This document shows, one piece after another, positions 2,135 through 63,337 of a stretch of DNA of 64,000 nt (position 1 is its first letter; every line of letters starts with the position of its first letter). The notes under the pieces are model-generated. The model was given only the letters and a program-made list of their open reading frames with translations, was not told the DNA's origin and did not search any database. Source of the stretch: Patescibacteria group bacterium (lineage in GTDB: Bacteria; Patescibacteriota; Minisyncoccia; Phycocordibacterales; Phycocordibacteraceae); the NCBI GenBank assembly GCA_040390125.1, contig JAZJYZ010000001.1, forward strand, positions 668,210 through 732,209. The letters are read 5' to 3'. The position numbers and the translations under genes were made by a program.

Positions 2135-2980
2135 ATGAAGCGTTGGCTGATTTCAGTAAGTGTAGTAATACTCATCGCACTACTCTCAACACCTTTGCAG
2201 GTTGCCGCCGAAACAGCTTCCGCAGGGATTCCTGAGGGAAATATTTGGCTTTCGAAAAGGACTCTCACTGAAGGAGAATCGGTTCGCATATTTTTGCCTG
2301 TCTATAATGCGAGCGCAGTAAAGATTTCTGGCGATGCAGTCTTTTCTGTCGATGCGATACAAGTGGGTACTGCACATTTTGAACTTGACGTTGGAAACTC
2401 CACAATAGTATCGAGTCCGTGGATCACAACTAAAGGACCACACTCAATAACGGCACGACTTGAAGGTGCTGTTGACGCAAAAACGGGTACCGAAATCGCC
2501 GTATCAGCAAACACGGAAACACTTGCTGTTGATGTAACTGAACGACCACCTGCACCCGTATTAGTGCAAGCACTTGCGAGTGTTGCTGACGTTGCACAAA
2601 ACACTGCGGCCGCTCTGCTTCCTGTTGTCTCCTCAGTTGCTGGTGCAGTATTTGATCAAACTGAAGAAATAAGAAAAAGTGCAGTAGTTGCACTTGAAAA
2701 TTCGTTGAACGGAACAGATGCTTCATCCGATACAACCGCACCGCAGGGGTTAGTGTTAGGTGCTGAAACATATCGTGCACCTGATCTAGGAAATGGGCTC
2801 GTAGCTTCCGCAATTACTGCACCCGCATCAACAGGTTTCATGCGTATACTCCAGAGCATACTTCTCTTTCTTATAAGTTACGTATGGATATTTTATCCGC
2901 TCTTGATTTTGATTCTTCTTGCAATTTTATATGTCATAGGAAAAGGACTATCCCGCAAGAAAGCAGGGGCTAGGTTCTAG
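2135..2980 (+). CDS. Hypothetical secreted protein with C-terminal transmembrane anchor
   Basis: 281-aa ORF. Signal peptide MKRWLISVSVVILIALLSTPLQVAA. C-terminal hydrophobic helix ILLFLISYVWIFYPLLILILLAILYVI followed by a basic tail. Confidence 0.6.
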   Translation: MKRWLISVSVVILIALLSTPLQVAAETASAGIPEGNIWLSKRTLTEGESVRIFLPVYNASAVKISGDAVFSVDAIQVGTAHFELDVGNSTIVSSPWITTKGPHSITARLEGAVDAKTGTEIAVSANTETLAVDVTERPPAPVLVQALASVADVAQNTAAALLPVVSSVAGAVFDQTEEIRKSAVVALENSLNGTDASSDTTAPQGLVLGAETYRAPDLGNGLVASAITAPASTGFMRILQSILLFLISYVWIFYPLLILILLAILYVIGKGLSRKKAGARF

Positions 2981-3040
2981 CTTCTAGGTGCTAGTTTAAA
3001 TTTCTGAAAGCTAGAAGCTAACAGCTAGCACCTAGAACCT
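2969..3040. repeat. Heptamer-periodic ctag-type, roughly palindromic intergenic element between convergent genes
   Basis: Left arm aggttctag/cttctag/gtgctag, centre tttaaatttctgaaag, right arm ctagaag/ctaacag/ctagcac/ctagaacc (reverse-complement 7-mers). The same design recurs in more than 12 other intergenic gaps in this window. Confidence 0.8.
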
Positions 3041-3053
3041 TTCAAAAGGCTCC

Positions 3054-3869
3054 TCAGAGGAGCATCAATATCGCTACAGCAAGTAAAACCCGATACACCG
3101 CAAACACATACAAGGGGTGTGTGCGGAGGAACTGCAGGAGGAAGTGGATCGCAAGAAGACCGCTCACAAATGCAACAACACTCCCAAGAATGAGCGGAGT
3201 GCCAATGACAGTAAATGCTCCCGCTCCATTAAGTTCAAAAAATTTCTTTAGCCCCGCTCCAAGAATAATAGGCACAGAAAGTAAAAAGCCAAAGCGTGCA
3301 GATGCTTCTCGTGAAAGCCCCAAAAACAGCCCACCTGAAATTGTCATGCCGGAACGGCTCATCCCCGGAATGAGTGCAAGGGATTGAAAAAATCCTATAC
3401 AGAGACTTCTCCAAAAACCTACCGCCTCTACACCAAGAGAAGTTTCCTTACGTTTTGACACATACTCCGCTACAAGAAAGACAACTGAGCCTGCAATGAG
3501 TGCATAGGCTACAAGATGAGTATTTCGAAACAATGTGTCCATGGTCTTCTCCAAAAAAAGACCAAAAATAATGGCGGGTATTGTGCCCACAATAAGTGCA
3601 ATGAGGAGTCGTGAGCTTTCTGCTTCTACAGGTTTCCCCAGCACCCTTTTAAGTGCAGTGTGTGCCAGATTCAATAAATCCTTAAAAAAGTACACTACAA
3701 CGGCAAGAATAGTGCCGAACTGCAACACCGCATCGACAGCAAGGCCATTTGCAGTGTTTGCACCAAGAATCTCCCGTACCACAATGAGATGCCCAGAAGA
3801 AGAAATTGGAAGAAACTCCGTAATTCCTTGCACGAGTCCCAAAATGCTAAAAATAAGCCAATCTCCCAT
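3054..3869 (-). CDS. uppP: Undecaprenyl-diphosphatase (UppP/BacA)
   Basis: 271 aa, multi-TM. Motifs GITEFLPISSSGHL and PGMSRSGMTISGG are characteristic of BacA/UppP. Confidence 0.9.
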   Translation of the reverse strand: MGDWLIFSILGLVQGITEFLPISSSGHLIVVREILGANTANGLAVDAVLQFGTILAVVVYFFKDLLNLAHTALKRVLGKPVEAESSRLLIALIVGTIPAIIFGLFLEKTMDTLFRNTHLVAYALIAGSVVFLVAEYVSKRKETSLGVEAVGFWRSLCIGFFQSLALIPGMSRSGMTISGGLFLGLSREASARFGFLLSVPIILGAGLKKFFELNGAGAFTVIGTPLILGSVVAFVSGLLAIHFLLQFLRTHPLYVFAVYRVLLAVAILMLL

Positions 3870-3915
3870 GGTGCTCTTCGTGGTATCCTATCATGTAATA
3901 CTAACTAGAATTCCT

Positions 3916-4683
3916 ATGCTTGAAAAACAAAATCTCGCCCTCCCTATTGCCATTGTTATTGCAGGAGCACTCATAGGCGGTTCGCTCTTCTTTGTGGGGC
4001 GTACGAATGCACCGGCTACGGATACCACACCCGCAGTCGCACAAAAAGACATACCCGGCGTAACTTCTGCAGACCACAGTATGGGTAGCATTGATGCACC
4101 AATAGTCATTGTTGAATACACCGACCTTGAGTGCCCGTTCTGTAAACAGTTTGATGGCACGATGAAGCAAGTAGTTGCAAATTATGGTGGCAAAGTTGCA
4201 TGGGTTACCCGTAACTTCCCTCTTCAGCAACTCCATCCAAATGCACCAAAGCTCGCGCTCGGAGCTGAGTGTGTTGCATCACTTGGAGGCAATGATGCAT
4301 ATTGGAAATTCCTTGATTCTATCTTTCTCCAAGCACCCATCAACACCTTCTTCGACATGACCAAGCTCACATCAACTGCTGAAGGTGTCGGAGTAAATGG
4401 AAAAGAATTTAATACATGTGTTGCGAGCGGAACATTCCAGGAAAAGATAACCAACGAATTCAACGATGCAGTGGGTGCCGGAGGCCAAGGAACACCCTTC
4501 TCTGTTATTGTCCTCAAAGACGGAATGTCGAACAGCACCAAGAAAGCCCTTGGAGATCTTCAAGCAACTCTCCAGCCTGGAACTCTCTTAGTATCCAAAG
4601 GAGGTAAGCAAATCGGCATGGGTGGCTCCCAGCCTATGGAAATAATCCGCAGTGTGCTCGATGTACTTCTGGCAGGAAAGTAG
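3916..4683 (+). CDS. DsbA-like thiol:disulfide oxidoreductase (thioredoxin fold), membrane-anchored
   Basis: CPFC active site in IVEYTDLECPFCKQF, with an N-terminal TM helix. The ORF track starts at 3535, which would overlap uppP on the opposite strand. The ATG at 3916 (MLEKQNL...) is taken as the start. Confidence 0.75.
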   Translation: MLEKQNLALPIAIVIAGALIGGSLFFVGRTNAPATDTTPAVAQKDIPGVTSADHSMGSIDAPIVIVEYTDLECPFCKQFDGTMKQVVANYGGKVAWVTRNFPLQQLHPNAPKLALGAECVASLGGNDAYWKFLDSIFLQAPINTFFDMTKLTSTAEGVGVNGKEFNTCVASGTFQEKITNEFNDAVGAGGQGTPFSVIVLKDGMSNSTKKALGDLQATLQPGTLLVSKGGKQIGMGGSQPMEIIRSVLDVLLAGK

Positions 4684-4692
4684 CATTTAAGA

Positions 4693-4769
4693 AGGTGCTA
4701 GCTTCTAGGTTCTAGGTGCTAGCTTTAACTTCCGAAAGCTAGAACCTAGTACCTAGTCCCTAGTACCTC
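4693..4769. repeat. ctag-type heptamer-periodic palindromic element between convergent gene ends
   Basis: aggtgctagcttctaggttctaggtgctagc - tttaacttccgaaagc - tagaacctagtacctagtccctagtacctc. The arms are near-reverse-complements built from NNNctag 7-mers. Confidence 0.8.
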
Positions 4770-5594
4770 TTATAGTCTGAGTCGGTAGATGTCAAAAGAA
4801 TTCTCGCCTTCGAACATGTCTGAAGGGTTTGGAAGGTACATACGCTCCCTGAGTATTTCGGCACTCGCATCATTAATGAGTCGATGAAATACTTCGAAGT
4901 CTTCTTCACATTCCTTAAAATCCAATACGTAGCGACGCATCTGGGATGAGCCATCGGCATTCTTTCTCTTTTTGCACTCGTACACAATGAAACGCCTGAC
5001 TGGTTTACCAAAAAGAGCTCCGACGGTGTAGTAGTTAAACATCGCCTGCAGTACAAAAAGTGGTTTATTGGCACCACTCTTACTGAATGAATCAACAAAT
5101 TTGTGATCCACAATGTCGACCGCTCCTTTTTCAACACGAGATTCAACCACTAAGTCAGAAATCGCTTTCACCGGGAGCGGTAGTCCTGGAACTTCTGCCA
5201 TACCCATAACTTCAATCCCTAAGACTTTATGTTTTGGTGGACGCTCTAAATAGAAAGACACTGCTTGCAAGTAATCTTTCTCCATCGAAAGCCTTTTCTC
5301 TTTTTGTGCTCGCTTACTCTTTGCTTTACCAAACTGTACTTCAAAGTCCGGAACATTTCGTAGGTACTCCAGCCCTAATGCGATAGACGCTTCTTTTGAA
5401 AGTCCGCTATAAAAATGCTGAAGCGCCACGTGCCCAGAGCGTCCAATGATGCCTGCGGGCGTGGACGGCGTGTCTCGCACATTTTCAACATACCGCTTGT
5501 ACCACGCCAGAGGGTTCCTCAAGAAGGATATCAAGGAAGAATGGCTCCAGTGTTTTATGGGATACTTTGATTTCTTACTCGAAGCCTTTTTCAC
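4770..5594 (-). CDS. PD-(D/E)XK (RecB/Cas4-like) nuclease-fold protein, hypothetical
   Basis: 274 aa with a GTG start. N-terminal HWSHSSLISFLRNPLAWYKRY resembles the RecB-family nuclease N-motif. VDIVDHK resembles the hhDYK catalytic motif. Assignment rests on motifs only. Confidence 0.5.
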   Translation of the reverse strand: MKKASSKKSKYPIKHWSHSSLISFLRNPLAWYKRYVENVRDTPSTPAGIIGRSGHVALQHFYSGLSKEASIALGLEYLRNVPDFEVQFGKAKSKRAQKEKRLSMEKDYLQAVSFYLERPPKHKVLGIEVMGMAEVPGLPLPVKAISDLVVESRVEKGAVDIVDHKFVDSFSKSGANKPLFVLQAMFNYYTVGALFGKPVRRFIVYECKKRKNADGSSQMRRYVLDFKECEEDFEVFHRLINDASAEILRERMYLPNPSDMFEGENSFDIYRLRL

Positions 5595-5658
5595 TTATTC
5601 ATTATACCTGTAGGGCTTTTGGCTTACAGGTTTTGGCTTTTAGGGAGATAAGGAGATA

Positions 5659-5696
5659 GAAAAAATAAATAACCACTACAGTTAACTGCAGTGGTT
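5659..5696 (-). terminator. Intrinsic terminator (hairpin aaccactacag-ttaa-ctgcagtggtt then a U-run on the minus strand)
   Basis: 11-bp stem with one mismatch and loop ttaa. Plus-strand A-run 5659-5670 gives the U-tract for minus-strand transcripts. It lies just downstream of the 5720..5938 ORF. Confidence 0.55.
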
Positions 5697-5719
5697 ATTG
5701 TTCTAATTAAATACTGCAA

Positions 5720-5938
5720 TCACCCCTTGAGAATCTCCCGCATCACATACTCCCCGACATGCCGTGCAGCTACAGCTACACCAACAATAGCCATAAACGC
5801 AGTTATAGCAGATGCCACGAAAACGGGAGTAGCCCACCCAAAAAATAATGCTTTACGAGATATAGCATTCAGTTTTTTTGAAATTTCAGTGGAAAGTCCA
5901 GCGGGAAGATTTTCAGGTTTTCCTGGTGTTTCAGACAT
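5720..5938 (-). CDS. Small membrane protein (72 aa), hypothetical
   Basis: ATG start. One central TM helix ALFFGWATPVFVASAITAFMAIVGVAVAA. Followed by the terminator hairpin at 5671. Confidence 0.4.
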   Translation of the reverse strand: MSETPGKPENLPAGLSTEISKKLNAISRKALFFGWATPVFVASAITAFMAIVGVAVAARHVGEYVMREILKG

Positions 5939-5953
5939 ATGATCTATATTGAA

Positions 5954-5975
5954 ATGTGGGGATTGTTCCCCACAT
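5954..5975 (-). terminator. Possible terminator hairpin downstream of rpoD
   Basis: atgtgggg-attgtt-ccccacat, an 8-bp GC-rich stem 70 nt past the rpoD stop. The following U-tract on the minus strand is weak. Confidence 0.3.
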
Positions 5976-6042
5976 ACTCATTATATCATATATATTACAT
6001 TTATCAATAGCTTATGCGGGAGACCTCGTAGGTCCTACATAT

Positions 6043-7323
6043 TTAGTATGAGCGGAGTCTTTTGGCTTTGCCGTGAGTGCGGATTTTTTCAAGTGCTTTT
6101 GCTTCAATCTGACGAATACGCTCACGAGTAACACCAAACTCCTGCCCTACCTCTTCGAGTGTGTGGTAAATGCCATCTTCAAGCCCATGACGCATTGCCA
6201 AAATTTTTCTTTCTTTTGGTGTGAGATCGCCCAAGATTTCGTGAAGCTGTTCAACAAGAATGCGATGAGCTGTTTCTTGGTCAGGCGTTGGGAGTGAATG
6301 GTCTGCAACGAAGTCACCACGAGCTGAGGCATCGTCATCATCCGATGAGCTGATAGGTGCCTCCAAAGAGAGTGTCTCTTGGTTGATTTGTTCAATCTGG
6401 TAGACCTTCTCAACATCGACACCCATCTCTGCAGAAATTTCTTCGGGCATCGGATCACGACCGAGGTCTTGTTCGAGTCTTCGTACTATTTGCTTGTACT
6501 TGGCAATCGTCTCCACCATGTGCACCGGAATACGAATAGTGCGTGATTGGTCCGCAAGAGCACGAGTGATGGCTTGTCGAATCCACCACGTAGCGTACGT
6601 AGAAAACTTATATCCTTTAGTGTAATCAAATTTATCAACGGCCTTGAAGAGTCCTAAGTTCCCTTCCTGAATGAGGTCGAGGAGTGACAAGTCCGATGAA
6701 CGTGATGCATATTTCTTTGCAATGGAAACAACGAGGCGAAGGTTTGCTCTCGCAAGAAGATTCTTTGCTTCTTCATCTCCTTCGGTGATACGTTTTGCAA
6801 GAGCTCGCTCTTCAGGACCCGTGAGGAGTGGATACTGGCCGATCTCACGCAAATACATTTGAATAGAGTCGTGTGCCGAGCCCTCGCCCCTGTAGCCCCC
6901 ACGCATTACCACCTCATCAGGCACTTCTTCGAGCATTCCACCTGACTCCAAGACATCAACACCTGATGTTGAAAGTCGCTCGTAGAGCTCTTCAAGAAAG
7001 ACTACATTCTCTTCGATCGTTGGAAATTCCTTTAAAATTTCATTGTACGTAACATAGCCACGCTCCTTACCTTTACCAATCAGACGTGAAGCTTTTGTCT
7101 CAAGAAGAGCACGCTTCTTACCAGAGAGTGCTTTAGCGGGCTTAGGTGCCTTTACCTTTGCTACCTTCTTTGCTGGTGCTTTCCCTTTGCGGAGCGGGAC
7201 CTTCTTTGCAGGCTTACTCTTTTGCTTCCCTGCTGGACGCACGACCTTCTTCACCACCTTTTTGCGGGGAGACGCCTTAACTGGCTTTTTTACCTTTTTG
7301 GATGTTGTTTTTTTCTTTGCCAT
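6043..7323 (-). CDS. rpoD: RNA polymerase sigma-70 factor RpoD with Lys-rich N-terminal tail
   Basis: Regions 2-4 are conserved ([57 protein letters not shown]). The N-terminal ~75 residues are KKxK/AKK repeats instead of an acidic region 1.1. Confidence 0.95.
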
Positions 7324-7349
7324 AGATGAAATATTAGTGAACTCTATCC

Positions 7350-9149
7350 TTAGTGGAGCTTCAAAGCAAGCACGCTGAGCTCCTGCATGAGCGTCTCAGT
7401 TTTCGAATCATCATGTGCCATTTCGGCGACCCGCAATGATGCAAGAACTTCACGATAGCGTTCATGCCGAGATTCTTTCAAAAGTGCATCATACACTTCC
7501 TCGACCGCACTCTGTCGAAGCGATTCATCTTCATGACGCTCCAGAAAGAAATCGGCTTCGAATAATGCGGCACTGGTGTCCGTCGGGGCTTCGAGCAATA
7601 ATCGCAAACGCTCTTCGGAAAGCGCCCCCTTGAGGGCATTCAAGGCTAACTCGGCACCCGACTCATCTTTCTTTTCCTTATAGAGAAGTAGGAGCCCGAA
7701 TACAAGACGCTCGAGCACATCACCTCGTGACAAGAAAGGCTGGGACTGCGTTAGTACTGAGTTCTGAGTACTGAGTACTGAGCTCGGACTCTGGACTCTC
7801 GACTCTGAACTCTGAACTTTTTTAAGTTCCGCAATCACCGCATCCTCTCCAACTTGAAGCACTTCTGCAACACGCTTAATGAAATGTGCCTGGTCTATTT
7901 TGTGAGGAATCATTGCGACGTACGGTAGAACGGTACGGGAAACTTCAAGGCGGAATGTTCGTGCGTCATACTTAGCATCCGCAATGTGTGCAAGGTAAAA
8001 ATCAACCACGTGAAGAGCTCCTTTGACCGCCACTCTAAATGATTCTTTGTTTTCGAGAAGCATGTCTGCAGGGTCCTTCTCTGGGGGGAGTTTTACTATT
8101 TTTACGTCGAGACCAATCTGTAGCGCTATGCCAGCGGCACGCCCTGCAGCCGAGATGCCTGCCCTATCACCGTCATAGGCTATGAGGAGGTTACCGGTGT
8201 AGCGTTTTATTATTTCTGCGTGTGGAAGTGTAAACGCAGTTCCTGAGGTTGCGAGTGCGTTCCGATACCCTGCTTGGTGAGCCATGAGTAAATCAAGCTG
8301 TCCTTCAACGAGAAGTGCCGCACCGAGCTCTCGAATACCGTCACGTGCACGGTCAAGACCATAGAGTGCACGTGATTTATCGAATACAGGAGTTTCCGGA
8401 GAATTCAGATACTTGGCTTGCGGGTGCTTTTCATCGTCTTCAAAAATGCGGCCCGAAAACCCAATAACTCTCCCTGAAATATCCTTAATGGGAAACATGA
8501 TGCGACCACGAAACCGATCGTACGTCCGTGCCAAAGGCACGGACGAGTTCTGAGTTCCTAGTTCTGAGTTCTGAGTTAACTCTGGACTCGGAACTCTAGA
8601 CTCTGAACTTTCCTGCTGTTTCACTAGTCCCGCACGCTCCAAAAGAGCATCATCAAAATTCTTTTCAAGCAAAAAGTCCCGGAGACTATGCCACGCATTC
8701 GACGCATACCCCAAAGACCATGAAGATATAGTTTCTTCTGTTAACCCTCGCTTCGTGAGGTAGGTAAAAGCGTCTGGCTTTTCTTTGAGGGTCGCAGAGA
8801 AAAAACCATTAGCTGTTTCAAGAACAGAATACAAACGTTCACGCAAATCACGCTCACCAGGTTTCTCATCTTCTAGAGGGACGCCTGCTTTTTCTGCCAG
8901 CATTTTTAAGGAACCGCGAAAATCCACTCCTTCCATCTCTTGTAGGAATGTAAACATATCGCCTCCTTTGCCTGAGGAAAAACAGTGATACAAACCTCGG
9001 TCAGGAGAAACAAAAAATGAAGGGGTCTTTTCTTTCGTGAATGGAGAAAGCCCCTTGTAGTACTTCCCCGCACGTGTGAGCTTCACGTACTGCTGTACCA
9101 CTTCAAGAATAGTGAGTCGTTCCTTAATTTTATTGACGGTGTCGCTCAT
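7350..9149 (-). CDS. dnaG: DNA primase DnaG
   Basis: CHC2 zinc finger [15 protein letters not shown] and TOPRIM region EGQLDLL / YDGDRAG. Contains two in-frame low-complexity insertions (listed as repeats below). Confidence 0.9.
7750..7815. repeat. gagt(a/t)ct / gactctg heptamer mini-element inserted in frame inside dnaG
   Basis: agtactgagttctgagtactgagtactgagctc-ggactctggactctcgactctgaactctgaact, translated on the minus strand as [23 protein letters not shown]. Confidence 0.75.
8545..8618. repeat. Second copy of the gagttct/gactctg mini-element inside dnaG
   Basis: gagttctgagttcctagttctgagttctgagttaactctggactcggaactctagactctgaact, translated as [23 protein letters not shown]. Confidence 0.75.
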
Positions 9150-9150
9150 A

Positions 9151-9191
9151 GATTAGCCACTAGCCATTAGAGTTTAGCCACTAGGGTTAGG
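9151..9191. repeat. tagccac/tagggtt heptamer element overlapping the 3' end of the HAD gene
   Basis: gattagccactagccattagagtttagccactagggttagg. It encodes the last residues (LTLVAKL) of the HAD protein and fills the dnaG-HAD gap. Confidence 0.7.
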
Positions 9192-9790
9192 ATATCTTCG
9201 AAATCCTGGAAACAATAGTCGGCGTCGGGTGAAGACTTCCACATGAGAGCAGTCTGAAGCCCAAGGCTTTTTGCAGGTTTGAGTTCTTTTTCGACGCTAT
9301 CCCCCACAAACAGTATATTCTCTGCTGGTAGGTTTGAGAGCTGAATCATTAAATGAAAGCCATCGAGTGCGGGTTTCGGATTCTTAACTTCTTGAGGGCC
9401 CAAGAGATGTGTGAACCATGCCGAATCTATTCCTAGAGCGGGAAAGAATTTGTCTGCTTGAACATTAGAAAAGATTGATATGGGAACAATTTCTCTGAGA
9501 CGCTGTAATACATCAGGAATGTTGGGGTTAGCGAGTTTTAAGAGGGATTCTGGATCTGCCGAAGCATACCGCTCCGACCAATACCCATCAGGTAATCCTA
9601 AAGAAGCAAAGATTGCCGAATGGCTTTTATGTTTCTCGAAAAGCGATTCGTATTCTTCAATCAACTCCGGCGTAACGGGCTTACCAACAACATCCGCATA
9701 CGAACCATAGCGCAATTTTGCATGTGCAGGCTTATCCAAGCGAACAATCGTCTCGCTAAAATCAAACCAGATGTGTTTAATGGAGCCCAT
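9167..9790 (-). CDS. HAD-superfamily hydrolase-like protein
   Basis: 207 aa. Motif I-like IWFDFSET and motif III-like FVGDSVEKE. Family assignment only. Confidence 0.6.
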   Translation of the reverse strand: MGSIKHIWFDFSETIVRLDKPAHAKLRYGSYADVVGKPVTPELIEEYESLFEKHKSHSAIFASLGLPDGYWSERYASADPESLLKLANPNIPDVLQRLREIVPISIFSNVQADKFFPALGIDSAWFTHLLGPQEVKNPKPALDGFHLMIQLSNLPAENILFVGDSVEKELKPAKSLGLQTALMWKSSPDADYCFQDFEDILTLVAKL

Positions 9791-9878
9791 AGAGATATAG
9801 AAGGTAGAGCGTAGAGCGTAGTCGGTAGTTAAGAGTAGAAAGACTAAGTCGTTTCTAATTTCTACTCTCTACCCACTA
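9791..9878. repeat. gtagagc / ctctac heptamer-periodic element between the HAD start and the rpoC end
   Basis: tagaaggtagagcgtagagcgtagtcggtagttaagagtag ... tttctaatttctactctctacccactac. Same 7-nt periodic, half-palindromic design as the other intergenic elements. Confidence 0.7.
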
Positions 9879-9887
9879 CATTCTTGC

Positions 9888-12800
9888 TTACGCTATGTCA
9901 GAGATCCTCTCCCTCGCCTCATCTCGTTCCATTTCAAGTTCCATTTCTCTTGCACGCTTCTCCTGGAATGCCTGCACACGAGCGTGCTTCTTACTACCTA
10001 CAAAGCCTGTTCCCGCAGGAATAAGTCGTCCAACAATAACGTTCTCCTTAAGTCCTGCAAGAAGGTCAACGGTGCCCTTAAGAGATGCGGTGATAAGAGT
10101 TCTTGTTGTGTGCTGGAAGGATGCCGCTGAAAGGAAGCTCTTGCGGTTCAACGAGACTTCAGTAATACCCAAAACCAAACGTTCATACTTGAGTACCTCT
10201 TTTCCTGCTTCTTCGAGTTCACGATTAGCGCTGTGGGCTGTTCGCATTTCAATAGCCTCACCCTTAACGAATGAACTATCTCCAGGGTCAGTAACTCGAA
10301 CACGTGAGAACATCTGACGAATGATAACTTCCATGTGCTTGTGTGACACTGGAGCACCCTGAAGGTCATAAATCTTTGCCACTTCATCAATCATGTAGTC
10401 TTGGAGTTTTTGAGCACCAGCAAGCTTGAAGAGCTCGTCAAGGTCGATAGAACCGTCAGTGAGCGTATCGCCCTTTTCTACATGCATTCCGGCTTTCACC
10501 ATTGCTACACGTCTTGCAGGGACTTCGTATTCTATTTTGTCTTTCTTGTCTGAAGACTGATCAGGGAGAAGCACAATCGTCTTTACACCCATGTCATCCC
10601 GAACTTCACTGATGTCCCCTGCAACTTCAGCTAAAATTGCGGCAGCCTTAGGAGGTCGCTTATCGAACAATTCTTCAATACGAGGAAGTCCGTTCGTGAT
10701 GTCGCCACCGATAGTTGCAACACCTCCTGTGTGGAAAGTACGCATGGTGAGCTGAGTTCCTGGTTCACCAATGGCTTGTGCTGCGATTGTTCCAACAGCC
10801 TCACCGATATCAATGATTTCACGAGTCGCAAGGTCAGAGCCATAACATTTCTGGCAAATACCTTTCTCTGAAGCACACGACATTGGAGAGCGTACGGTTG
10901 CCTCTTCAACGCCTGCTTTTGCAATTGCTGTTGCGTCTTCTTTCAAAAGGAATGCACCTCGTTTCCATGTTTTGTCTCCTACAGTGATTTCTTTTGCAAG
11001 CACTCGCCCAACAATAAGCTTTCCAAGGTCAGCCTCCATACCTGTGGAGCGCATACGGTTAATGGCGAGCCCGAGCTTGGTGCCACAGTCAGCTTCAGAA
11101 ATCATGATGTCTTGTGCAACATCGAAGAGTCTGCGAGTAAGATACCCTGCATGTGCAGTCTTCAAGGCCGTGTCGGTCAAGCCTTTTCTCGAGCCGTGCG
11201 TCGTAGTGAAGTATTCAGTTGGTGTAAGTCCTTCTTTCATTGAAGAGACCACGGGGAATTCAATAACACCTCCTGCGGTGTTGGTCACCAAACCTTTCAT
11301 ACCCGCCATTTGGGAGAGCTGTCGAACCGATCCTCGAGCTCCTGACACCACCATGGTGTATACCGATGAGAGAGTGTTCAAGGAAGGCAAAATCTCCTTC
11401 TCAATGTCCCCTACTGCTTTCTGCCATATCTCAATGGTGAGACGCATTTTTTCTTCCGCCGTCAAAAGACCGTTTTCGTACTGTGTTGTCATTTCTTGCA
11501 CTTCCTTCCGAGCCGCTTCTACGAGCTTCTTCTTAGCTTCTGGAACCGCAAGGTCATCGAAGCTGAAAGAAACACCCGACTTGGTTGCGAATTGGAAACC
11601 GAAATGTTTGATTTTATCGAGAATTCCTGGCGTCTTTTCAAGACCGTAAATCAAAATGACATCGTCAACAAGTTTGCCGAGCTGAGTCTTCTTTATTTCA
11701 GAATTGATGAAGAGGTAATCTTTTGGAAGGATTGAGTTGAAGAGAAGTCGTCCCACAGTGGTCTCAAAACGCTCACCTTTGAACGCTGCGTACTTAGGGT
11801 TGTCTTTTGTTGGCTCCACTGAAATCTTTGCGTGAATACCCACATCGCCGAAGTCGTACGCAAGAATCGCTGCGTTTGGACTCTGGAAATATTTTCCCTC
11901 ACCTTTTTCGTTTGGAATATCTCGAGTCATCCAGTAAATACCAAGAGCGATGTCGAGAGGCTTCTCAAAGATAACTGGCTGGCCTGATCCCGGCTTCAAT
12001 ACATTCTTTGCAGCCGACATAATCGTTTCGGCTTCCATTTGTGCTTCAGCAGAAAGAGGGACGTGTACAGCCATTTGGTCACCGTCGAAGTCAGCGTTGA
12101 ATGCAGGACAAACGAGCGGGTGGAGTTGAATAGCGTTGCCTTCAATAAGACGTGGACGGAAAGCCTGAATACCTTGACGGTGAAGCGTAGGAGCACGGTT
12201 CAAGAGTACGTGTTTGCCTTGAATCACCTCCTCTAAAATGGCCCACACTTCTGGAATTCCCTCTTCAATAAGCCTGCCTGCTCCACGGATGTTGTGAGCA
12301 AGTTCACGCTCTAAGAGTTTTGCAATAATGAACGGACGGAAAAGTTCCAATGCCATCTTCTTTGGAAGACCACATTCATCGAGTTTAAGTTCAGGTCCAA
12401 CAACGATAACGGAGCGTCCTGAGTAGTCGACACGCTTACCAAGGAGGTTGAATCGGAAATACCCTTGCTTTGATTTCAAGTAGTCAGCGAGTGATTTCAG
12501 GGGTCTGCGCTGTGCCTGACTTGCAGCTGAAAATGCTGCACCGCCACGGCGAATTGAGTTGTCGAGAAGTGCATCGACTGCTTCCTGCAAGATGCGCTTT
12601 TCGTTTCTTAGAATTACTTCTGGAGCATAAATATCCCGCAACTTCACGAGACGGTTATTGCGGTTAATAACCCGGCGATACAAGTCGTTCACGTCTGATG
12701 TTGCGTGGCGTCCAGACTCAAGAGCAACCATAGGGCGAAGTGCCGGAGGCGTTACGGGAATACGAGTCAAGAACATCCACTCAGGACGAACGCCGGCCTT

Positions 12801-13595: not shown

Positions 13596-13619
13596 ATGTT
13601 TTAGGGGTTAGGAAAACGA

Positions 13620-16838: not shown

Positions 16839-16867
16839 CTTAGATTTTATTAACGATTGCTAATGAG

Positions 16868-48898: not shown

Positions 48899-48925
48899 AA
48901 AAAGAATAAATTAAAATAAAAAGAT

Positions 48926-49114: not shown

Positions 49115-49146
49115 CAAAAAACTCTCCTTAGCCGGAGAGTTTTTAA
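49115..49146 (+). terminator. Bidirectional intrinsic terminator aaaaaactctcc-ttagcc-ggagagttttt
   Basis: 8-bp stem extended by A/T pairing and followed by a T-run. Lies between the CARDB gene and the palindrome cassette. Confidence 0.6.
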
Positions 49147-50060: not shown

Positions 50061-50082
50061 GAATAAAAAAATACTACAGTTA

Positions 50083-50118
50083 ACTGTAGTATTTTTGGTG
50101 TCTTCCCTAAACCCTAGT
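50083..50118. terminator. Bidirectional intrinsic terminator A7-atactacag-ttaa-ctgtagtat-T5
   Basis: Perfect 9-bp stem with flanking A and T tracts. Shares the core ctacagttaactg(t/c)ag with the terminator at 5671. Serves the cassette gene (+) and gyrB (-). Confidence 0.7.
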
Positions 50119-50130
50119 GACTACTGGCTA

Positions 50131-50141
50131 CCCCCCCCCCC
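50131..50141. repeat. C11 homopolymeric tract
   Basis: ctggctaCCCCCCCCCCCtagc between the terminator and the gyrB 3' end. Confidence 0.8.
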
Positions 50142-50174
50142 TAGCTGTGGAGTGTTTTTTATTTGCCTTTTAAT

Positions 50175-50218
50175 CTAAAAAGCTGAAAGCTAACAGCTGA
50201 AACCTGAAAGCTAAAAAG
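50175..50218. repeat. agctgaa-type heptamer element abutting the gyrB stop
   Basis: ctaaaaagctgaaagctaacagctgaaacctgaaagctaaaaag. Confidence 0.7.
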
Positions 50219-54686: not shown

Positions 54687-56456
54687 TTATCTCACTTCCC
54701 AACCCTGACTAGTAAGCCAGAGCGTCACCGACGCCATCCAGCCATTTGCTTCTTCATCGGTGAGGGTGCTTTCATCTGATTGAAATACAAGCCTGAACGC
54801 AAAGGACGTTCTTCCCTCTTTTGAAAATGTATCAAACAGTGTGCATCTCACAAGCATGGGCCCCGCATTCTGCATTATGTTGGACCTCGTAGATTCCACA
54901 TCAGTGGTGTCGGGAGCCCAAAAGGCAACATCCCGCACAATGAACGGATACAGAGAGAAAGGCTTGTACGGGCTCAAAACATACCGCTTGGGAACAAAAT
55001 CTCCGTCCGGTGCAATCTCTGGAATGTCCGGCACAGGCTCAGAAGTTTGAACAGCAATGCGTTCGCTATCTTTTGAAAATACCGTTCCCACCTCGAAGAC
55101 TTTTGACTCCACATTCGGAGCTACTGTAATGGGCGCATAGAGCTTTGCCTTCAGAAGAGCTTCTTTAAGATTTTCTGCAAGTGTGGTGCGAAGTGCCGGC
55201 TTCGTTTTGTCTAGTGGGTTTGCGAGCCACACTTCCCCTTTCTTTGCAAAAGACTGTGTAGACACTTCTGTGAATCCACGTTCAACCAAAAAGTCTTTGA
55301 CCCGTTCAATGCCACGAAACTTTGCTTGATCGACAGCTTCTGTAGAAGACAATTCAACAGCTTGTACACGGTCATACCCTAGTATGCGACCAACCTCTTC
55401 GACAATGTCTTCTGGAAGCGTAATATCTGTTCTTTCAAAAGGAGGAGTCACTGTAAACACTGTGCCCGCTACAGTTGTTGGAAGATCAAGACGACGAAGT
55501 ACATCCGTAACTTCGCTTTCTTTAAAATCTGCTCCCAGGATTGCATTGATACGTATCAGAGAAACGATAACTGGTGCACTCTGTGCAGGTTTTTTTGGAT
55601 ACACATCAACGACGCCCACGAGCTCCCCTCCCGCAACCTGCTTTAGGAGTGCAAGAATCGCATGCATACCATAGGCAGTAAGTTCAGGCGTTGGACGATT
55701 CTGATAGCGCTGTGAGGCATCAGTAAAGAGCTTCAGTTTTTGAGATGCTTTTCTGATGAGGGTACCATCGTAATTACCAACGGAAATGAAAAGATCGGTC
55801 GTGGATTCGGTGACTCCAGAAGTAAGTCCACCCTTGATTCCTGCGATATCAAGGAGAGACCCGCCAACAGCATCGGTGAAAGTAAACATTTCTTCAGTGA
55901 GCGTATATTCCTCTCCAGTAAGAGTCGTAATTTTTTCTCCAGTCTTTGCCCGTCGAATGTTGATTTTTACAACACCATTTTCGAGCTCCATCTTTCCAAC
56001 ATCGAACGCACCTGAGGGCTGACCAATATCAAGAAGAACGAAGTTGAGAACATCAACCACGTTATTGATTGAACGCTGACCTAGGGATTCAAGTGCATCT
56101 TTCAACCATGCCGGAGATGCACCTACTTTCACTCCTTTTACTAATGCTCCGGTGTGTCGAAGAACGTAGTCTGAATCTACCTCCACCGTAAGTTTGTCCG
56201 TCGTCGGAAACACTTCAAGTGGTTCCCGAAATGGATCATATTTAATCGGTATATTCAAAATTGCAGAGAGGTCTTTGGCAATGCCTCGGTGCGACAAACA
56301 ATCTGCTGCACGGTTTGGAAGTACTTTTACATCGAGAATATTCCCTTCGACCCCATCAATCTCGAAGGAGTGAAAAGTAAACGCATCTGCAATTACCTCA
56401 ACGCTCGGTAGTGGTTTTTCAAAGTATTTCTGAAGCCAATCGGTTGAAATTTTCAT
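54687..56456 (-). CDS. pheT: Phenylalanine--tRNA ligase beta subunit, short form lacking the N-terminal tRNA-binding domain
   Basis: 589 aa. B3/4-like and B5 regions and a C-terminal catalytic-like fold. Same operon as pheS. Confidence 0.8.
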   Translation of the reverse strand: MKISTDWLQKYFEKPLPSVEVIADAFTFHSFEIDGVEGNILDVKVLPNRAADCLSHRGIAKDLSAILNIPIKYDPFREPLEVFPTTDKLTVEVDSDYVLRHTGALVKGVKVGASPAWLKDALESLGQRSINNVVDVLNFVLLDIGQPSGAFDVGKMELENGVVKINIRRAKTGEKITTLTGEEYTLTEEMFTFTDAVGGSLLDIAGIKGGLTSGVTESTTDLFISVGNYDGTLIRKASQKLKLFTDASQRYQNRPTPELTAYGMHAILALLKQVAGGELVGVVDVYPKKPAQSAPVIVSLIRINAILGADFKESEVTDVLRRLDLPTTVAGTVFTVTPPFERTDITLPEDIVEEVGRILGYDRVQAVELSSTEAVDQAKFRGIERVKDFLVERGFTEVSTQSFAKKGEVWLANPLDKTKPALRTTLAENLKEALLKAKLYAPITVAPNVESKVFEVGTVFSKDSERIAVQTSEPVPDIPEIAPDGDFVPKRYVLSPYKPFSLYPFIVRDVAFWAPDTTDVESTRSNIMQNAGPMLVRCTLFDTFSKEGRTSFAFRLVFQSDESTLTDEEANGWMASVTLWLTSQGWEVR

Positions 56457-56503
56457 AATTAGAAAGTGGAAAGTAGGATATAGAAGGTAGATAACAACAT
56501 AGA

Positions 56504-56860
56504 TTATTTGTGAAGATATTTACGATAACCACCGATTAATGCTCCGAGATTCTTCAGCTTTTCCTTCAGAGATTCATATTTGGCTGTATCAATAAAGGAT
56601 AACTCAAAAGAGACAGCGAGAAGACTTTCTACTTCATTAAGAGAGCCGAGTGCCATATCAATGAAACGGCTATTATCTTTCTTTGATCCACGTCCTGCCC
56701 CTTCTGCAATATTTGAAGATATAGAAATAACGGCACGCCTTAATTGAGAAGTAAGTCCGAACATTTCTTCTTTTGGAAATTTACCCGTAAGAGAATATAT
56801 CTCAGTGGCAAGTACTACCGCTTCTTGCCAAATTTTTAGGTTTTCGTAAGTTTTTGCCAT
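56504..56860 (-). CDS. Four-helix-bundle protein (23S rRNA intervening-sequence protein family) inserted between pheS and pheT
   Basis: 118 aa. MAKTYENLKIWQEAVVLATEIYSLTGKFPKEEMFGLTSQLRRAVISISSNIAEG matches the conserved N-terminal pattern of this family. Confidence 0.75.
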   Translation of the reverse strand: MAKTYENLKIWQEAVVLATEIYSLTGKFPKEEMFGLTSQLRRAVISISSNIAEGAGRGSKKDNSRFIDMALGSLNEVESLLAVSFELSFIDTAKYESLKEKLKNLGALIGGYRKYLHK

Positions 56861-56869
56861 ATCTACTTT

Positions 56870-57616
56870 CTACACTCCACCCTCTACACTCTTACTATCA
56901 AATCCGTAGACGAATCTAGTATCACCCGAATGGAAAAGACGTACATCAGGAATCCCGTACTTCACCATTAAGAGTCTCTCAAGCCCTCCTCCGAACGCAA
57001 ACCCTTGCACCTTCTCAGAATCAAGTCCTGCATTTTTAAAAACGCTTGGATGAAGCATTCCGGCTCCCGCCATCTCGAGCCAACGTCCCTCTTTCCCTGG
57101 CGCCTCAAACCACACATCTATCTCAACTCCGGGCTCGACAAACGGAAAGAAGCTGGGACGAAAACGCACTTTTGTACCCTCACCTAAATATTCTTTGTAA
57201 AAACGGTCAAAGGTTCCCTTCAAGTGCCCGAGGGTAATCTCACCAGTGGGTGCCACCGCAAAGCCATCAAGTTGATAGAACTGAGCCTCGTGAGTCATGT
57301 CGGTTGCTTCGTTGCGAAATACCTTACCGGGATTTATGGTGCGCATTGAAGTAGCGCCAGATTTTGCCATTTCCTCAAGGCAACGAATAGTCACGGATGT
57401 ATCGTGAGTGCGGAGTACAAAGCCAGGACGGTCTTTTATCCAAAACGTGTCCTGCATGTCACGAGCAGGATGATCAGCCGGCACATTGAGAGCACTGAAA
57501 TTATGAAATTCATCCTCAAGTTCAGGCCCGTAGGCAATACTGAAACCCATGCGTCCGAAAATCTCCGCAATATCTCGGAGGGCGACAGAAATAGGGTGCA
57601 AGCGACCTTTTGGCAT
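56870..57616 (-). CDS. pheS: Phenylalanine--tRNA ligase alpha subunit, catalytic core only (248 aa)
   Basis: Class-II motifs FNFSALNVPADHPARDMQDTFW and GFAFGGGLERL. Lacks the usual N-terminal ~90 aa. Confidence 0.9.
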   Translation of the reverse strand: MPKGRLHPISVALRDIAEIFGRMGFSIAYGPELEDEFHNFSALNVPADHPARDMQDTFWIKDRPGFVLRTHDTSVTIRCLEEMAKSGATSMRTINPGKVFRNEATDMTHEAQFYQLDGFAVAPTGEITLGHLKGTFDRFYKEYLGEGTKVRFRPSFFPFVEPGVEIDVWFEAPGKEGRWLEMAGAGMLHPSVFKNAGLDSEKVQGFAFGGGLERLLMVKYGIPDVRLFHSGDTRFVYGFDSKSVEGGV

Positions 57617-57689: not shown

Positions 57690-57756
57690 ACAATTTAAAA
57701 AGCAAAAAGAGCTGTATAGCATAATATGACGGTCGTCATATTATACTATACAGCTC
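57690..57756 (-). terminator. Intrinsic terminator of the PEGA-GT2 transcript (long hairpin then a U-run on the minus strand)
   Basis: gagctgtatagcataatatgac-ggtc-gtcatattatactatacagctc has ~22-bp arms with one mismatch. The plus-strand A-run 57690-57708 gives the U-tract. A second perfect 16-bp hairpin ggtacacgtggggcta-cctctagg-tagccccacgtgtacc lies just upstream at 57778-57817. Confidence 0.65.
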
Positions 57757-61829: not shown

Positions 61830-62414
61830 TTATTTAGTAGAGAATCTCGTAAAGCGATCTATGTCAACGCGCTCGCCGAATTTCTGAATTGCTCCATCAA
61901 TCACAGCCTGGATAGTTTTTTCCGGATCTTTTATGTAGGTCTGCTCAAGCAAAACCAAGTTTTTTAAATACGCATCCACCTTTCCGCCAAGAATGGTTTC
62001 TTTGAGATTGTCCGGCTTCCCTTCTACTTCTTTTATAAAAAGTGCCTTAATTTCTTCTAACTTCTCGGGAGAAATTTCGTCGCGTCGTACATACTGCGGA
62101 TTTGATGCGGCAACTTGGAGCGCAAGATCACGTGCGAGTGCAACAAATTCTTCATTCTTAGCAACAAAGTCAGTTTCGGAACGCAAGATTAGCATCGAGC
62201 CGATTTCCTTATTGGAGTGTATGTATGATGCAACAATGCCAGCGGCGAGTGTTCGGTCTCCTTTTTTAGCGGCGAGTACGCCACTCTTTTTTGAAAGAAT
62301 CATGAGCGCCTTTTCCTTGTTGCCATCCGCCTCTACGAGAGCTGCTTTGCACTGCATAACAGAAATGCCTGTTTCTTCACGAAGTGCTTTGACCATGTCT
62401 GAAGTAATTTCCAT
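61830..62414 (-). CDS. tsf: Elongation factor Ts (short form)
   Basis: N-terminal UBA-like MVKALREETGISVMQCKAALVEADGNKEKAL. 194 aa. Confidence 0.9.
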   Translation of the reverse strand: MEITSDMVKALREETGISVMQCKAALVEADGNKEKALMILSKKSGVLAAKKGDRTLAAGIVASYIHSNKEIGSMLILRSETDFVAKNEEFVALARDLALQVAASNPQYVRRDEISPEKLEEIKALFIKEVEGKPDNLKETILGGKVDAYLKNLVLLEQTYIKDPEKTIQAVIDGAIQKFGERVDIDRFTRFSTK

Positions 62415-62471
62415 ATGAGAAGTATGCCTGACTATACATTTAAAGTCACGACCGCTTTTGCGTTCTTATTT

Positions 62472-63215
62472 CTAACTTTTGATTTCAGCTGCGCTCTCCT
62501 CTGCAGGAAGCACAACACGCCCCTTCGTTCCTTCACGATACGCATCGGTAACCTGTCCAAGGAAAAATAAAACAGACTCTTTTGATGCGTCGTTTCCAAC
62601 AATCGGATACTGCACCGCAGAGAGATCGCAATCAGAATTCATAATACCAACTACGGGAATGCCTAACGTTGCCGCTTCAGAGACTGCAATAGATTCAGCA
62701 CGGGTATCAACTATCAAAAGTGCGTCAGGAAGCTTCTCCATAGCGTTTAAACCAAGAAAATTTTCTTCAAGACGATTGATTTCACGATCAAAAAGAACTC
62801 GCTCCTTCTTTGTATATTTCTTTGCTGAGGCTCCGGTATCTCGCTCGCCAGTGAGTTCCTGCATCCGCTTGATACGACGTTTAATTTCAGTGAAATTAGT
62901 GAGTGTACCCCCAAGCCAGCGACCAGCGACATACGGCATACCGAGCTCAATGGCGGTAGTTTTGACAATATCTTTCATTTCCGGCTTGCCCCCAACAAAC
63001 AACACCGTCTTGCCATGTGCACCAAGCCCTCGAACAAAAGTGAGTGCGTTCTCCATAATAGGAGCCGTCTTAGTAAGGTCGAGAATATCAGTCTTATTTT
63101 TTGACCCGTAGACAAGGGATTTCATCGTCGCATGGCGTCGTGAACGGGAAAAGCCAAAGTGGGCCCCCACCTTAAAAAGGGCTTCGACGAGCGGTGAATC
63201 GGTATTCTGTGACAT
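62472..63215 (-). CDS. rpsB: 30S ribosomal protein S2
   Basis: FKVGAHFGFSRSRRH..., VLFVGGKPE and VAGRWLGGTLTNF motifs. The ATG at 63215 is preferred over the longer ORF. Confidence 0.92.
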   Translation of the reverse strand: MSQNTDSPLVEALFKVGAHFGFSRSRRHATMKSLVYGSKNKTDILDLTKTAPIMENALTFVRGLGAHGKTVLFVGGKPEMKDIVKTTAIELGMPYVAGRWLGGTLTNFTEIKRRIKRMQELTGERDTGASAKKYTKKERVLFDREINRLEENFLGLNAMEKLPDALLIVDTRAESIAVSEAATLGIPVVGIMNSDCDLSAVQYPIVGNDASKESVLFFLGQVTDAYREGTKGRVVLPAEESAAEIKS

Positions 63216-63258
63216 GCGGATTACTCTAACACAGAGGAAAGACTCGGGCAACGACGTA

Positions 63259-63337
63259 AAAAGCTGTCAGGTGCCAGCTGTCAGCTTTTAGCTTTTAAAT
63301 TCAAAGCTAGAACCTGGAAGCTGAAAGCTAGAAGCTT
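63259..63337. repeat. agctgtcag / agctggaag heptamer palindromic element between the release factor and rpsB
   Basis: aaaagctgtcaggtgccagctgtcagcttttagc - ttttaaattcaa - agctagaacctggaagctgaaagctagaagctttc. Confidence 0.75.

Follow-up and report, generated by a model that had tools for sequence, protein, structure and literature searches.

STRR-type heptamer-repeat arrays in a candidate phyla radiation genome and their association with IVP/TIGR02436 genes

What are the runs of degenerate seven-nucleotide units that fill so many gaps between genes in a Patescibacteria genome, how do they come to be there, and which functions could they serve? This question is raised by a stretch of 64,000 nucleotides (hereafter the window; positions 668,210 to 732,209 of contig JAZJYZ010000001.1, assembly GCA_040390125.1) from a Patescibacteria group bacterium of the candidate phyla radiation (CPR), in which a previous sequence-only reading had noticed a pervasive family of half-palindromic elements with a 7-nt period. 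It is demonstrated here that the heptamer arrays are real and that their periodicity is stronger than had been claimed. The elements belong to the bacterial heptamer-repeat class of the short tandemly repeated repetitive (STRR) type, found here in a CPR genome, and heptamer arms are associated with genes of the IVP/TIGR02436 family across CPR, proteobacteria, cyanobacteria and Bacteroidota. As an overall explanation, evenly balanced in our judgment between being right and wrong, a composite is proposed in which STRR-type elements are spread by insertion, remodelled by slippage and given processing or stability roles at the RNA level.

Autocorrelation of the intergenic DNA gave identities of 0.313, 0.303 and 0.293 at lags 7, 14 and 21, against approximately 0.26–0.27 for the majority of the remaining lags (values were also higher at lags 1, 2 and 9), and coding DNA displayed a 3-nt signal only. 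When segments were scanned at a strict threshold (≥17 matches in 21), eight were found at lag 7, none at lags 4–6 and 8–12, and none in 100 Markov shuffles; at ≥15/21 there were 19 segments versus 0.5 expected, so that the 7-nt period is strongly enriched over shuffled sequence. At ≥14/21, arrays were present in 17 of the 43 gaps of at least 15 nt (about 40% of gaps), and they covered 875 of 6512 intergenic bases (13.4%) versus 313 of 57488 coding bases (0.54%), the control lags 5, 8, 10, 11 and 13 covering just 32–89 intergenic bases. Altogether, 26 arrays were counted in the window. Tandem Repeats Finder (TRF) returned period-7 rows, mostly of 4.3–4.9 copies, at 2965, 3008, 4693, 4739, 7753, 7786, 8545, 8578, 9804, 18323, 31117, 31876, 33512, 35116, 35185, 38315, 50179, 56869 and 63304. 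Sequence and TRF together confirmed a 7-nt array at every site listed by the sequence-only reading, to which those at 19926, 31871, 33509, 33957, 50104, 56456 and 56860 are now added. Their siting was also as previously described, at convergent, divergent and co-directional junctions and as in-frame copies within genes.

The assignment to the heptamer-repeat class relies on units of exactly 7 nt placed head to tail, on a dispersed and mostly intergenic distribution, and on the occupation of the same gaps in relatives with variation; one feature of the class, the dominance of one or few near-perfect units per genome, is absent. Heptamers of this class are known as GGGAATC in Xanthomonas and GGGGA(T/C)T in Nostoc (Rehm et al. 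2015, PMC4692102); the GGGAATC arrays are 89–93% intergenic, comprise 70–75 inverted pairs in convergent orientation that could form stem-loops, and occupy the same gaps in sister species while varying widely in length and sequence (PMC4692102). The pairs described here have the polarity of the GGGAATC pairs, with G-rich arms facing each other. However, GGGAATC is one dominant, near-perfect, G-rich unit of up to 14–26 copies, studied as a G-quadruplex former, whereas the window, from a CPR host, presents several degenerate flavours of 4–6 units without G-quadruplex potential and has coding copies that are in frame. Similarly, the TAACTGA repeats of marine Beggiatoaceae, cyanobacteria and Bacteroidetes occur in 2–6 copies, mostly intergenic and often ending 1 nt before a start codon (MacGregor 2015, PMC4679880), with a few copies within open reading frames (ORFs), in translatable orientation, and one inverted set out of 170 (PMC4679880). 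TAACTGA is thus a single unit in which inversion is rare, in contrast to the many flavours and frequent inverted pairs of the window. Compared with the cyanobacterial STRR arrays, those of the window are shorter, more degenerate, about half of them tight hairpins, and located in another phylum; the AAAAGCT/TTAGCTG flavour, with its T-rich to A-rich polarity, is also present in a Pseudanabaena plasmid. In cyanobacteria, work said to go back to Mazel in 1990 and Elhai in 2008 reportedly found STRR heptamer arrays pervading intergenic DNA, with nested hairpin-forming elements of ~21–30 nt.

Each element of the window is either a single arm or two arms in inverted orientation, with 4–6 degenerate 7-nt units per arm and a length of 35–90 nt. 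The earlier description of heptamers followed by their reverse complements holds for about half of the elements, namely those at 2964, 4690, 7748, 8543, 9793, 38312 and 63259 and the split pairs 35114/35182 and 56456/56860, but the remainder are single arms. Paired elements are predicted to fold on either strand as single long RNA hairpins with energies between -22 and -43 kcal/mol (z from -2.1 to -6.9 versus dinucleotide shuffles), whose stems are 6-bp helices with a mismatch at each seventh position. A fixed polarity was verified in 11 of the 13 long hairpins in all the sequence fetched, in which the 5' arm is G+T-rich (G>C) and the 3' arm is complementary and A+C-rich, the two exceptions being one classical terminator and one A/T-rich array; polarity was judged by hairpin arms and by the skew in the sense of the IVP gene, stop/start orientation being confounded by short gaps that touch both. 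Arms start 0–14 nt past stop codons or include the stop (ORF 2135-2980, dnaE, pheS, HAD), and they end 0–5 nt before the starts of dnaG, rnhB, nusB, IVP, pheT and HAD. At least four flavours are present, the units inside one array differing at 1–3 positions and TRF matches ranging from 68 to 91%. The several flavours noticed previously do exist as multiple unit types, but they grade into one another rather than form separate families: NNNCTAG and AGCTGNA constitute one intergrading family whose centre, TAGCTTTAAnTTCTGAAAGCTAG, is shared by copies that are not orthologous, both within the window and in relatives. Identical unit words recur across different loci and phyla. The 7-mer grammar first proposed is upheld, as that of a dispersed, hairpin-forming family.

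One element encloses a gene. The only IVP gene of the window (56504–56860, - strand; PF05635 23S_rRNA_IVP, 126.9 bits; TIGR02436 four helix bundle protein, 121 bits) is found between pheS and pheT, exactly between inverted GTAGAAA/TTTCTAC arms with a predicted duplex of -29.6 kcal/mol (z -2.3). In its 5' arm (56860–56896, - strand; AGTAAGA GTGTAGA GGGTGGA GTGTAGA AAGTAGA), which ends 1 nt before the IVP ATG, the final pheS codons and the TAG stop are encoded, and its 3' arm (56456–56500, - strand; TATCTAC CTTCTAT ATCCTAC TTTCCAC TTTCTAA) lies between the IVP stop and pheT, ending 2 nt before the pheT ATG. The layout of a 23S rRNA intervening sequence (IVS), with complementary pairable flanks around a PF05635 ORF, is displayed in the window only by this 56456–56896 unit. 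When strain-level polymorphism was sought, the only other contig with this IVP proved 100% identical. Arms enclose IVP genes in nine further CPR or deltaproteobacterial loci, with arm pairing of -27 to -33 kcal/mol. Layout and flavour are the same in relatives whose IVP at pheS|pheT is 56–92% identical, in a Yanofskybacteria genome, where the armed IVP lies between atpD and atpC, and in comparison locus L058, and in a deltaproteobacterial metagenome-assembled genome (MAG) the IVP arms are built of a related unit. GTAGAAA arms are kept around IVP genes 41–92% identical in three gene contexts.

When 72,556 plasmids were searched by tblastn, the IVP homologues found were nearly confined to cyanobacteria, Riemerella, Azospirillum and Gemmatirosa. 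In 14 plasmid-borne IVP regions (cyanobacteria, Riemerella, Azospirillum), a G-rich array lies upstream and its complement downstream, as exemplified by AGTAGGG x8/CCCTACT x5, AAGGGAA/TTCCCTT, AAGGTTT/AAACCTT, GGTGACA x~40/TGTCACC and GGACAGA/TCTGTCC. These plasmid sites include positions inside operons, such as nrdB|nrdA, cas6|cas4 (twice), cmr2|cmr3, parA|parB and others, and IVP recurs at junctions between genes of the same operon whose functions are coupled (the plasmids L108-L121, L101, L099, L106, pheS|pheT and atpD|atpC). Arrays were present on both sides of 17 of 24 IVP genes, on one side of four and on neither side of three, versus one, 18 and 82 of the 101 control genes from the same loci (Fisher p = 1.5e-14, a value that overstates independence, since many of the 24 loci are orthologous and they represent approximately 14 independent contexts). 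In IVP sense, the 5' arm had G>C in 20/24 cases and the 3' arm C>G in 22/24, and in the array-poor loci L058, L093, L104, L106 and L120 the sole arrays adjoin IVP.

Published observations agree with this association. A GGGAATC array abuts XCC0516 (PMC4692102), a Xanthomonas IVP homologue beside accB that was crystallised with five chains as 2GSC. In Coxiella burnetii, the S23p ORF of the 23S IVS is preceded by GACAGAT heptamers and by an RNase III site, the enzyme cutting at the first GACAGAT repeat (PMC4990558). This IVS resembles the pheS-[arm]-IVP-[arm]-pheT unit, in that a stem of flanking complements encloses a PF05635 ORF; it differs in that the window cassette is located in an mRNA operon and most copies are ORF-less, any RNase III excision or cleavage in the window being conjectural. 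The literature searched contained no paper in which heptamer repeats are connected with CPR or, more generally, with IVP proteins. It is tentatively proposed, as a possibility still short of probable, that bacterial heptamer repeats have their partner in IVP/TIGR02436 proteins, with the IVP gene travelling as a cassette with its own inverted arms and the ORF-less arrays of CPR, cyanobacterial and Xanthomonas genomes being non-autonomous satellites or trans-targets. Such a cassette may lodge at pheS|pheT, atpD|atpC, nrdB|nrdA, cas6|cas4, cmr2|cmr3 and parA|parB, and beside accB.

The distantly related, nucleic-acid-binding protein Avd of diversity-generating retroelements forms a positively charged barrel of five subunits and works on RNA together with a reverse transcriptase. 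A diversity-generating retroelement was considered and rejected, the distantly Avd-like window IVP scoring only 44 bits against the Avd model (cut-off 80) and the window having no reverse transcriptase. The notion that five units correspond to one per pentamer subunit fits the window (4.3–4.9 copies by TRF for most arrays). Cyanobacterial arms with 8, 17 and ~40 units tell against it, and it is retained as speculation only.

How the arrays arise and change can be read from relatives, synteny with six of which holds over window positions 1-18,600 (L-numbers designate the fetched comparison loci). At the orthologous gaps C, D, G and I (L001-L005, L013), arrays are kept in position, not in sequence, and full conservation across relatives, as for ordinary terminators, is not observed: even where RpoB/RpoC are 95–97% identical, heptamer flavour, unit number and architecture differ at the same gaps. 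At the gap between the PD-(D/E)XK and DsbA genes, a CTAG-type hairpin with an identical loop is common to the window and L003, its units differing at variable positions without compensation; each of the two has swapped one partner of an ancestral perfect pair, and no compensatory stem evolution was seen, alignment register in such stems being ambiguous owing to the repeats. In L005, the same left arm is present and the right arm is interrupted by a ~31-nt element, whereas L002 and L013 have a TAGGGTT/CCCTAAA-type hairpin and are one perfect extra unit apart, the extra unit being in L013. L001 and L004 hold a classical terminator plus one arm, and L006 a classical terminator only. Flavour swapping was also verified at the bacA, rpoC-HAD and HAD-dnaG gaps, as well as at two DnaG linker sites, GAGTTCT-type in the window and of GTAGAAA, CCCTAAA or AAGCTGA flavours in L004 and L005. 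In trmD, the array is a clean 30-nt in-frame block placed between the AAAAG and GGG of the relatives and missing from three of them, with neither a local seed nor a target-site duplication in comparison with relatives. Finally, 80 related metagenomic contigs (953 kb) contained 98 lag-7 arrays versus 4–13 for other non-triplet lags, with a patchy distribution, some lineages having 2–4 per 10 kb while several 20-kb loci had none. Taken together, the turnover at gaps, the trmD insertion and the patchiness indicate that the elements arrive as inserted blocks, persist solely at permissive sites, and lose, gain or replace whole units by slippage.

Part of this behaviour would be expected if the arrays were merely neutral heptanucleotide microsatellites generated and maintained by replication slippage, to which 7-nt units are prone, with neither a partner protein nor a function. 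Whole units are gained and lost, perfect adjacent duplicates occur (ACTAACT ACTAACT in L013, and gagattt x4, attgcaa x3 and ctagtat x3 in distant loci), flavours turn over quickly, tolerance is restricted to permissive sites, and the heptamer excess of many bacteria has been ascribed to polymerase slippage in the literature. Nevertheless, slippage alone leaves unexplained the inverted second arm and the fixed 5' G+T/3' A+C polarity, the loop common to non-orthologous copies, the recurrence of unit words across phyla, the seedless block insertion in trmD and the conserved GTAGAAA arms around IVP, which makes this explanation unlikely as a whole.

In the composite explanation, slippage is therefore one component. 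The ORF-less arrays would be counterparts or satellites of the inverted heptamer arms around IVP/TIGR02436 genes, with the same fixed polarity of a G+T-rich arm 5' and a complementary A+C-rich arm 3'. Paired arms would fold in transcripts into long imperfect stem-loops, most plausibly acting as processing sites for the double-strand-specific RNase III, whose gene is present in the window (31908–32630), and as protection of 3' ends at gene ends and at junctions in operons, a role that would resemble that of 23S rRNA intervening-sequence stems rather than that of canonical intrinsic terminators. Single A-rich arms, in turn, would become leaders poor in Shine-Dalgarno (SD) sequences for the downstream genes. 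The abundance of arrays would mainly reflect a tolerated self-propagating repeat, not 20 separately selected regulators.

Several points weigh against this explanation, the incomplete independence of the IVP loci among them. Most arrays of the window have CTAG/AGCT, TAGGGTT or GAGTTCT units, whereas its only IVP has GTAG arms, and this flavour mismatch leaves unproven that the arrays descend from, or depend on, IVP cassettes; alternatively, arrays already in place could be preferred insertion sites for IVP genes. The arrays flanking the Pseudanabaena IVP are direct, not inverted. Half of the elements are single arms, unable to form a hairpin, and the lack of compensatory stem change argues against strong selection on individual pairs. 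In addition, RNase III cleavage, mRNA stability and leader functions are all roles that we infer from sequence. It is because of the flavour mismatch, the lack of compensation and the nature of these RNA-level roles that the composite explanation is held at even balance.

The hairpins at gene ends bring in another possibility, that of unusual heptamer-built, perhaps bidirectional, transcription terminators or attenuators. The element at 2964–3044 (no strand is assigned to the elements unless given) fills the gap in which ORF 2135-2980(+) and bacA (3054-3869, -) converge, with a CTAGGTT/CTAGCTT arm that holds the stop codon of the + gene, a loop and an AAGCTAG/CACCTAG arm (-32.7 kcal/mol, z -3.1). 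Its family member at 4690–4774 is placed where the DsbA-like gene (end 4683) and the PD-(D/E)XK gene (end 4770) converge; its 34-nt arms are 82% complementary, and its stem is made of 6-bp helices with a single mismatch every 7 nt (-42.9 kcal/mol, z -6.9). Both convergent ends lack any other terminator, the stems are stable, and L001, L004 and L006 hold a classical GC-stem with T-run instead of or beside the array at the orthologous gap, all of which would suit termination. However, the heptamer stems are low in GC, have no T-run after them and are missed by the consensus terminator scan, which retrieved classical terminators at 31579-31603, 25842-25865, 33572-33599, 49117-49144 and 57709-57756. 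Arrays are also found between the co-transcribed genes of pheS/pheT and HAD/dnaG, at the divergently oriented starts of 35114-35222 and in the dnaG and trmD ORFs, where termination would harm, and half of them are single arms. Because of the lack of a GC-rich stem with T-run, the failure of the scan to detect them and their location in operons, ORFs and divergent starts, the terminator role that had been raised is unlikely as a main function, and we regard this explanation as decidedly improbable.

Further elements are associated with gene ends. The hairpin at 9793–9884 (GTAGAGC/GTAGTNN then TTTCTAC/TCTCTAC; z -3.2/-3.3) lies between the rpoC stop and the HAD start and has the flavour of the IVP gene's arms, yet no ORF. 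That at 38312–38392 (TAGGTTA/TAGGTTT then AACCTAG/CACCTAT; z -3.8) lies between the dnaE stop, included in its first unit, and the thrS start, and that at 63259–63341 (CAGCTGT/CAGCTTT then AAGCTAG/AAGCTGA) between the stop of a release-factor gene and the rpsB start. Among single arms, a CAGAGTT/CTTAGTT array (22324–22364) is located in the convergent gap between a gnd-like gene and rpsP, beside a small classical hairpin; another (31871–31908; CTAAACA/CTAAACC on the + strand, TAGTGTT in rnc sense) is immediately 3' of the RNase III stop; a G+T-rich arm (48865–48900; TAGGCTT TAGCCAT TAGGGTA TAGGGTT) begins 1 nt past the stop of ORF 47746-48864; and near the 3' end of gyrB there are two arrays (50104–50224), a CCCTAAA-type one at 50104-50141 and AAAGCTG/AAAGCTA x5 at 50177-50224, the latter abutting the gyrB stop.

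Other arms are located before gene starts or elsewhere in gaps. A single arm at 9150–9194 (- strand units CTAGTGG/CTAATGG) occupies the entire 17-nt HAD-dnaG gap and terminates at the dnaG ATG; as stated in the sequence-only reading, it supplies the last ~8 codons of the HAD gene, and the array (9153-9194) overlaps ORF 9167-9790(-) so as to include the stop as well. The A+C-rich arm at 19926–19960 (CCCCTAG CCCCCAA ACACTAA ACGCTAT) stops 7 nt before the zwf start, and that at 31114–31150 (CCTCCCT GAAAGCT CACACCT GAAAGCT GAAAGCT in the sense of smc, -) shortly precedes a TATAAT and the smc ATG. The arm at 33509–33552 (TTTCTAC/TTTCCAC in gene sense) ends at the true nusB ATG, downstream of the classical rpmF terminator, and that at 33957–33991 (CCTGAAA ACTGAAA CCTGACA GCTAAAA) is within the gap 33902-34128. 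In the divergent gap between rnhB(-) and dnaE(+), a split pair (35114–35222) comprises arms at 35114-35152 and 35182-35222, ~35 nt apart, so arranged that for each gene a sense AAGCT-type arm reaches up to the ATG. Such arms might be read from their sequence as cis-regulatory protein- or ribosome-binding arrays in leaders, each heptamer binding one protein of the oligonucleotide/oligosaccharide-binding-fold/cold-shock or S1 type, or one subunit of an oligomer, and controlling the translation of genes that lack an SD. Indeed, arms lie 0–5 nt from the starts of dnaG, rnhB, dnaE, nusB, pheT, IVP and HAD, leaving no space for an SD; the Beggiatoaceae TAACTGA repeats end 1 nt before starts, and CspB binds heptamer repeats (PMC4679880). 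On the other hand, many arrays are only at 3' ends or within ORFs, and flavours differ in the orthologous leaders of close relatives, which is hard to square with gene-specific regulation. This is the least probable of the explanations considered, and only a small chance is given to it.

As for the copies inside genes, the previous suggestion of coding copies stands for three elements: two are in frame in dnaG (7350-9149, -) and encode linkers, at 7748–7823 (AGTACTG/AGTTCTG then GGACTCT/GAACTCT) and 8543–8611 (a GAGTTCT arm then an AACTCTG arm; -33.4 kcal/mol, z -5.6), and one is the single arm of trmD (17852-18616, -) at 18317–18355, where the 30-nt insertion encodes VQSSKSRVQS. In contrast, the copy at 33512 is noncoding, since it lies ahead of the true start of nusB. 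In-frame insertion is also known from Rickettsia palindromic elements (RPEs) and some transposable elements of the miniature inverted-repeat type (MITEs), and the arrays could be non-autonomous elements similar to MITEs or repetitive extragenic palindromic (REP) sequences, mobilized by a transposase of RAYT/IS200-like or other kind whose gene lies outside the window in the 749-kb genome, the arms being multi-site transposase-binding ends. Their dispersal as a family with a conserved centre, their presence/absence polymorphism and a second small element nested in arms would agree with this. However, no transposase, RAYT, integrase or reverse transcriptase was found among the window ORFs of at least 80 aa (64 kb of the ~749-kb contig), the trmD insertion lacks a target-site duplication, and the elements have no defined terminal sequence, a variable unit number and many single arms, which makes this explanation very unlikely.

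The resemblance to REP/bacterial interspersed mosaic elements (BIMEs) or RPEs that had been suggested is limited in the same way. The window elements, like RPEs and REPs, are small, dispersed and palindromic, and RPEs are also found in frame in genes, where they add surface or linker peptides. RPEs (~100-150 nt) and REPs (20-40 nt), however, have a defined consensus and no 7-nt periodicity, and REPs, imperfect palindromes with a GTAG/CGTC head, are strictly extragenic and linked to RAYT. REP/BIME membership does not agree with several periodic flavours of 35–90 nt, the lack of a single conserved palindrome and three copies in ORFs, and no RAYT was found among the window ORFs (64 kb of the ~749-kb contig); RPE membership does not agree with a host other than Rickettsia, heptamer construction and the lack of any RPE match in Rfam, whose gathering-threshold scan of the window returned a tRNA-Thr only, the elements being set apart from RPEs by their description.

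Smaller repeats accompany the arrays. An element of ~30 nt, GATCCCTTCGGATCCGACGAAGCGTCGCC, is found as an exact copy, in frame, in the C-terminal tail of rpsP (ribosomal protein S16; 22457–22485, +). It consists of two mini-hairpins and recurs inserted inside heptamer arms in L001 (15942-15959) and L005 (7865-7882 and 12661-12678), with no copy in the other 119 loci; its nesting in arms parallels the small dispersed repeats reportedly present inside Nostoc heptamer arrays. Small perfect hairpins centred on GACATACGATGTC are located at 18183-18195 (trmD) and 40197-40209 of the window, in trmD of L002 and L003, and in gap F of L002; the site of the in-frame trmD copy holds other small hairpins (GAACGACCTACGAGGTCGTTC, GGGACATACGATGTCCC) or nothing in relatives. 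Duplicated palindromes were also observed in the window, namely CTACAGTTAACTGTAG (two copies, 5676-5691 and 50074-50089), GTGCTACACCCGGGTGTAGCAC (two exact copies in a terminator-like context, 31837-31858 and 40452-40473) and CTATACGATyGATCGTATAG (~49270 and ~50030). Near dnaG in another CPR phylum (Peregrinibacteria/Peribacteria), heptamer arrays are present in L007 (5592-5674) and L010 (9309-9428), some as inverted pairs (GTTACTG.../...CAGTAAC-like). The (CCCTAAA)n/(TTTAGGG)n flavour is identical to the plant-type telomere repeat and occurs in bacterial gaps and in the DnaG linker of L005/L013 (L002 14605-14652; L005 3440-3479 and 8478-8518; L013 6428-6468; window 48865-48900); this identity is probably coincidental, and contamination screens could be misled by it.

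Regarding the host, the nearest DnaG relatives are Candidatus Paceibacterota/Patescibacteria MAGs, on which ground a heterocystous cyanobacterium, the classic host of STRR, was rejected. The window is rich in core genes (rpoB/C, rpoD, dnaG, dnaE, gyrB, thrS, pheS/T, smc, rnc, nusB-NUDIX, rpsB, rpsP, rpmF, tsf and others). NusB is fused with a C-terminal NUDIX domain in one ORF (32621-33508). ORFs 40534-44298 (1254 aa) and 45148-47586 (812 aa) have no Pfam match and may encode surface proteins, given the sortase gene between them; no record was found for the PD-(D/E)XK protein of the window. A tandem repeat of 86 bp, perfect over its 2.2 copies (100% identical), occupies 17664-17856, in the gap at the 3' end of trmD. 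The idea that CTAG/AGCT mark restriction-avoidance or methylation clusters was discarded, since their values (0.88 and 0.96) are not unusual. The near-absence of CGCG (12 observed versus 147 expected from trinucleotides) and the deficit of GGCC, GCGC and GATC (0.5–0.6 of expectation) do suggest restriction-modification avoidance in the window. No enrichment of promoter-like hexamers was found in a scan of the window.

Heptamer repeats, STRR and relatives included, have served as fingerprinting markers for decades, and IVP/S23p is a large protein family. The class was known in cyanobacteria, Xanthomonas and Beggiatoaceae. It is shown to pervade a streamlined CPR genome under pressure at every base, even writing linkers of DnaG and TrmD. 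For the annotation of CPR MAGs, this implies that gene starts and ends are often inside arrays, and that a low-complexity insert in a core protein can stem from a repeat and need not be an assembly error. For the repeats and the protein family alike, the cross-phylum and statistically strong association between them joins the two questions of function into one.

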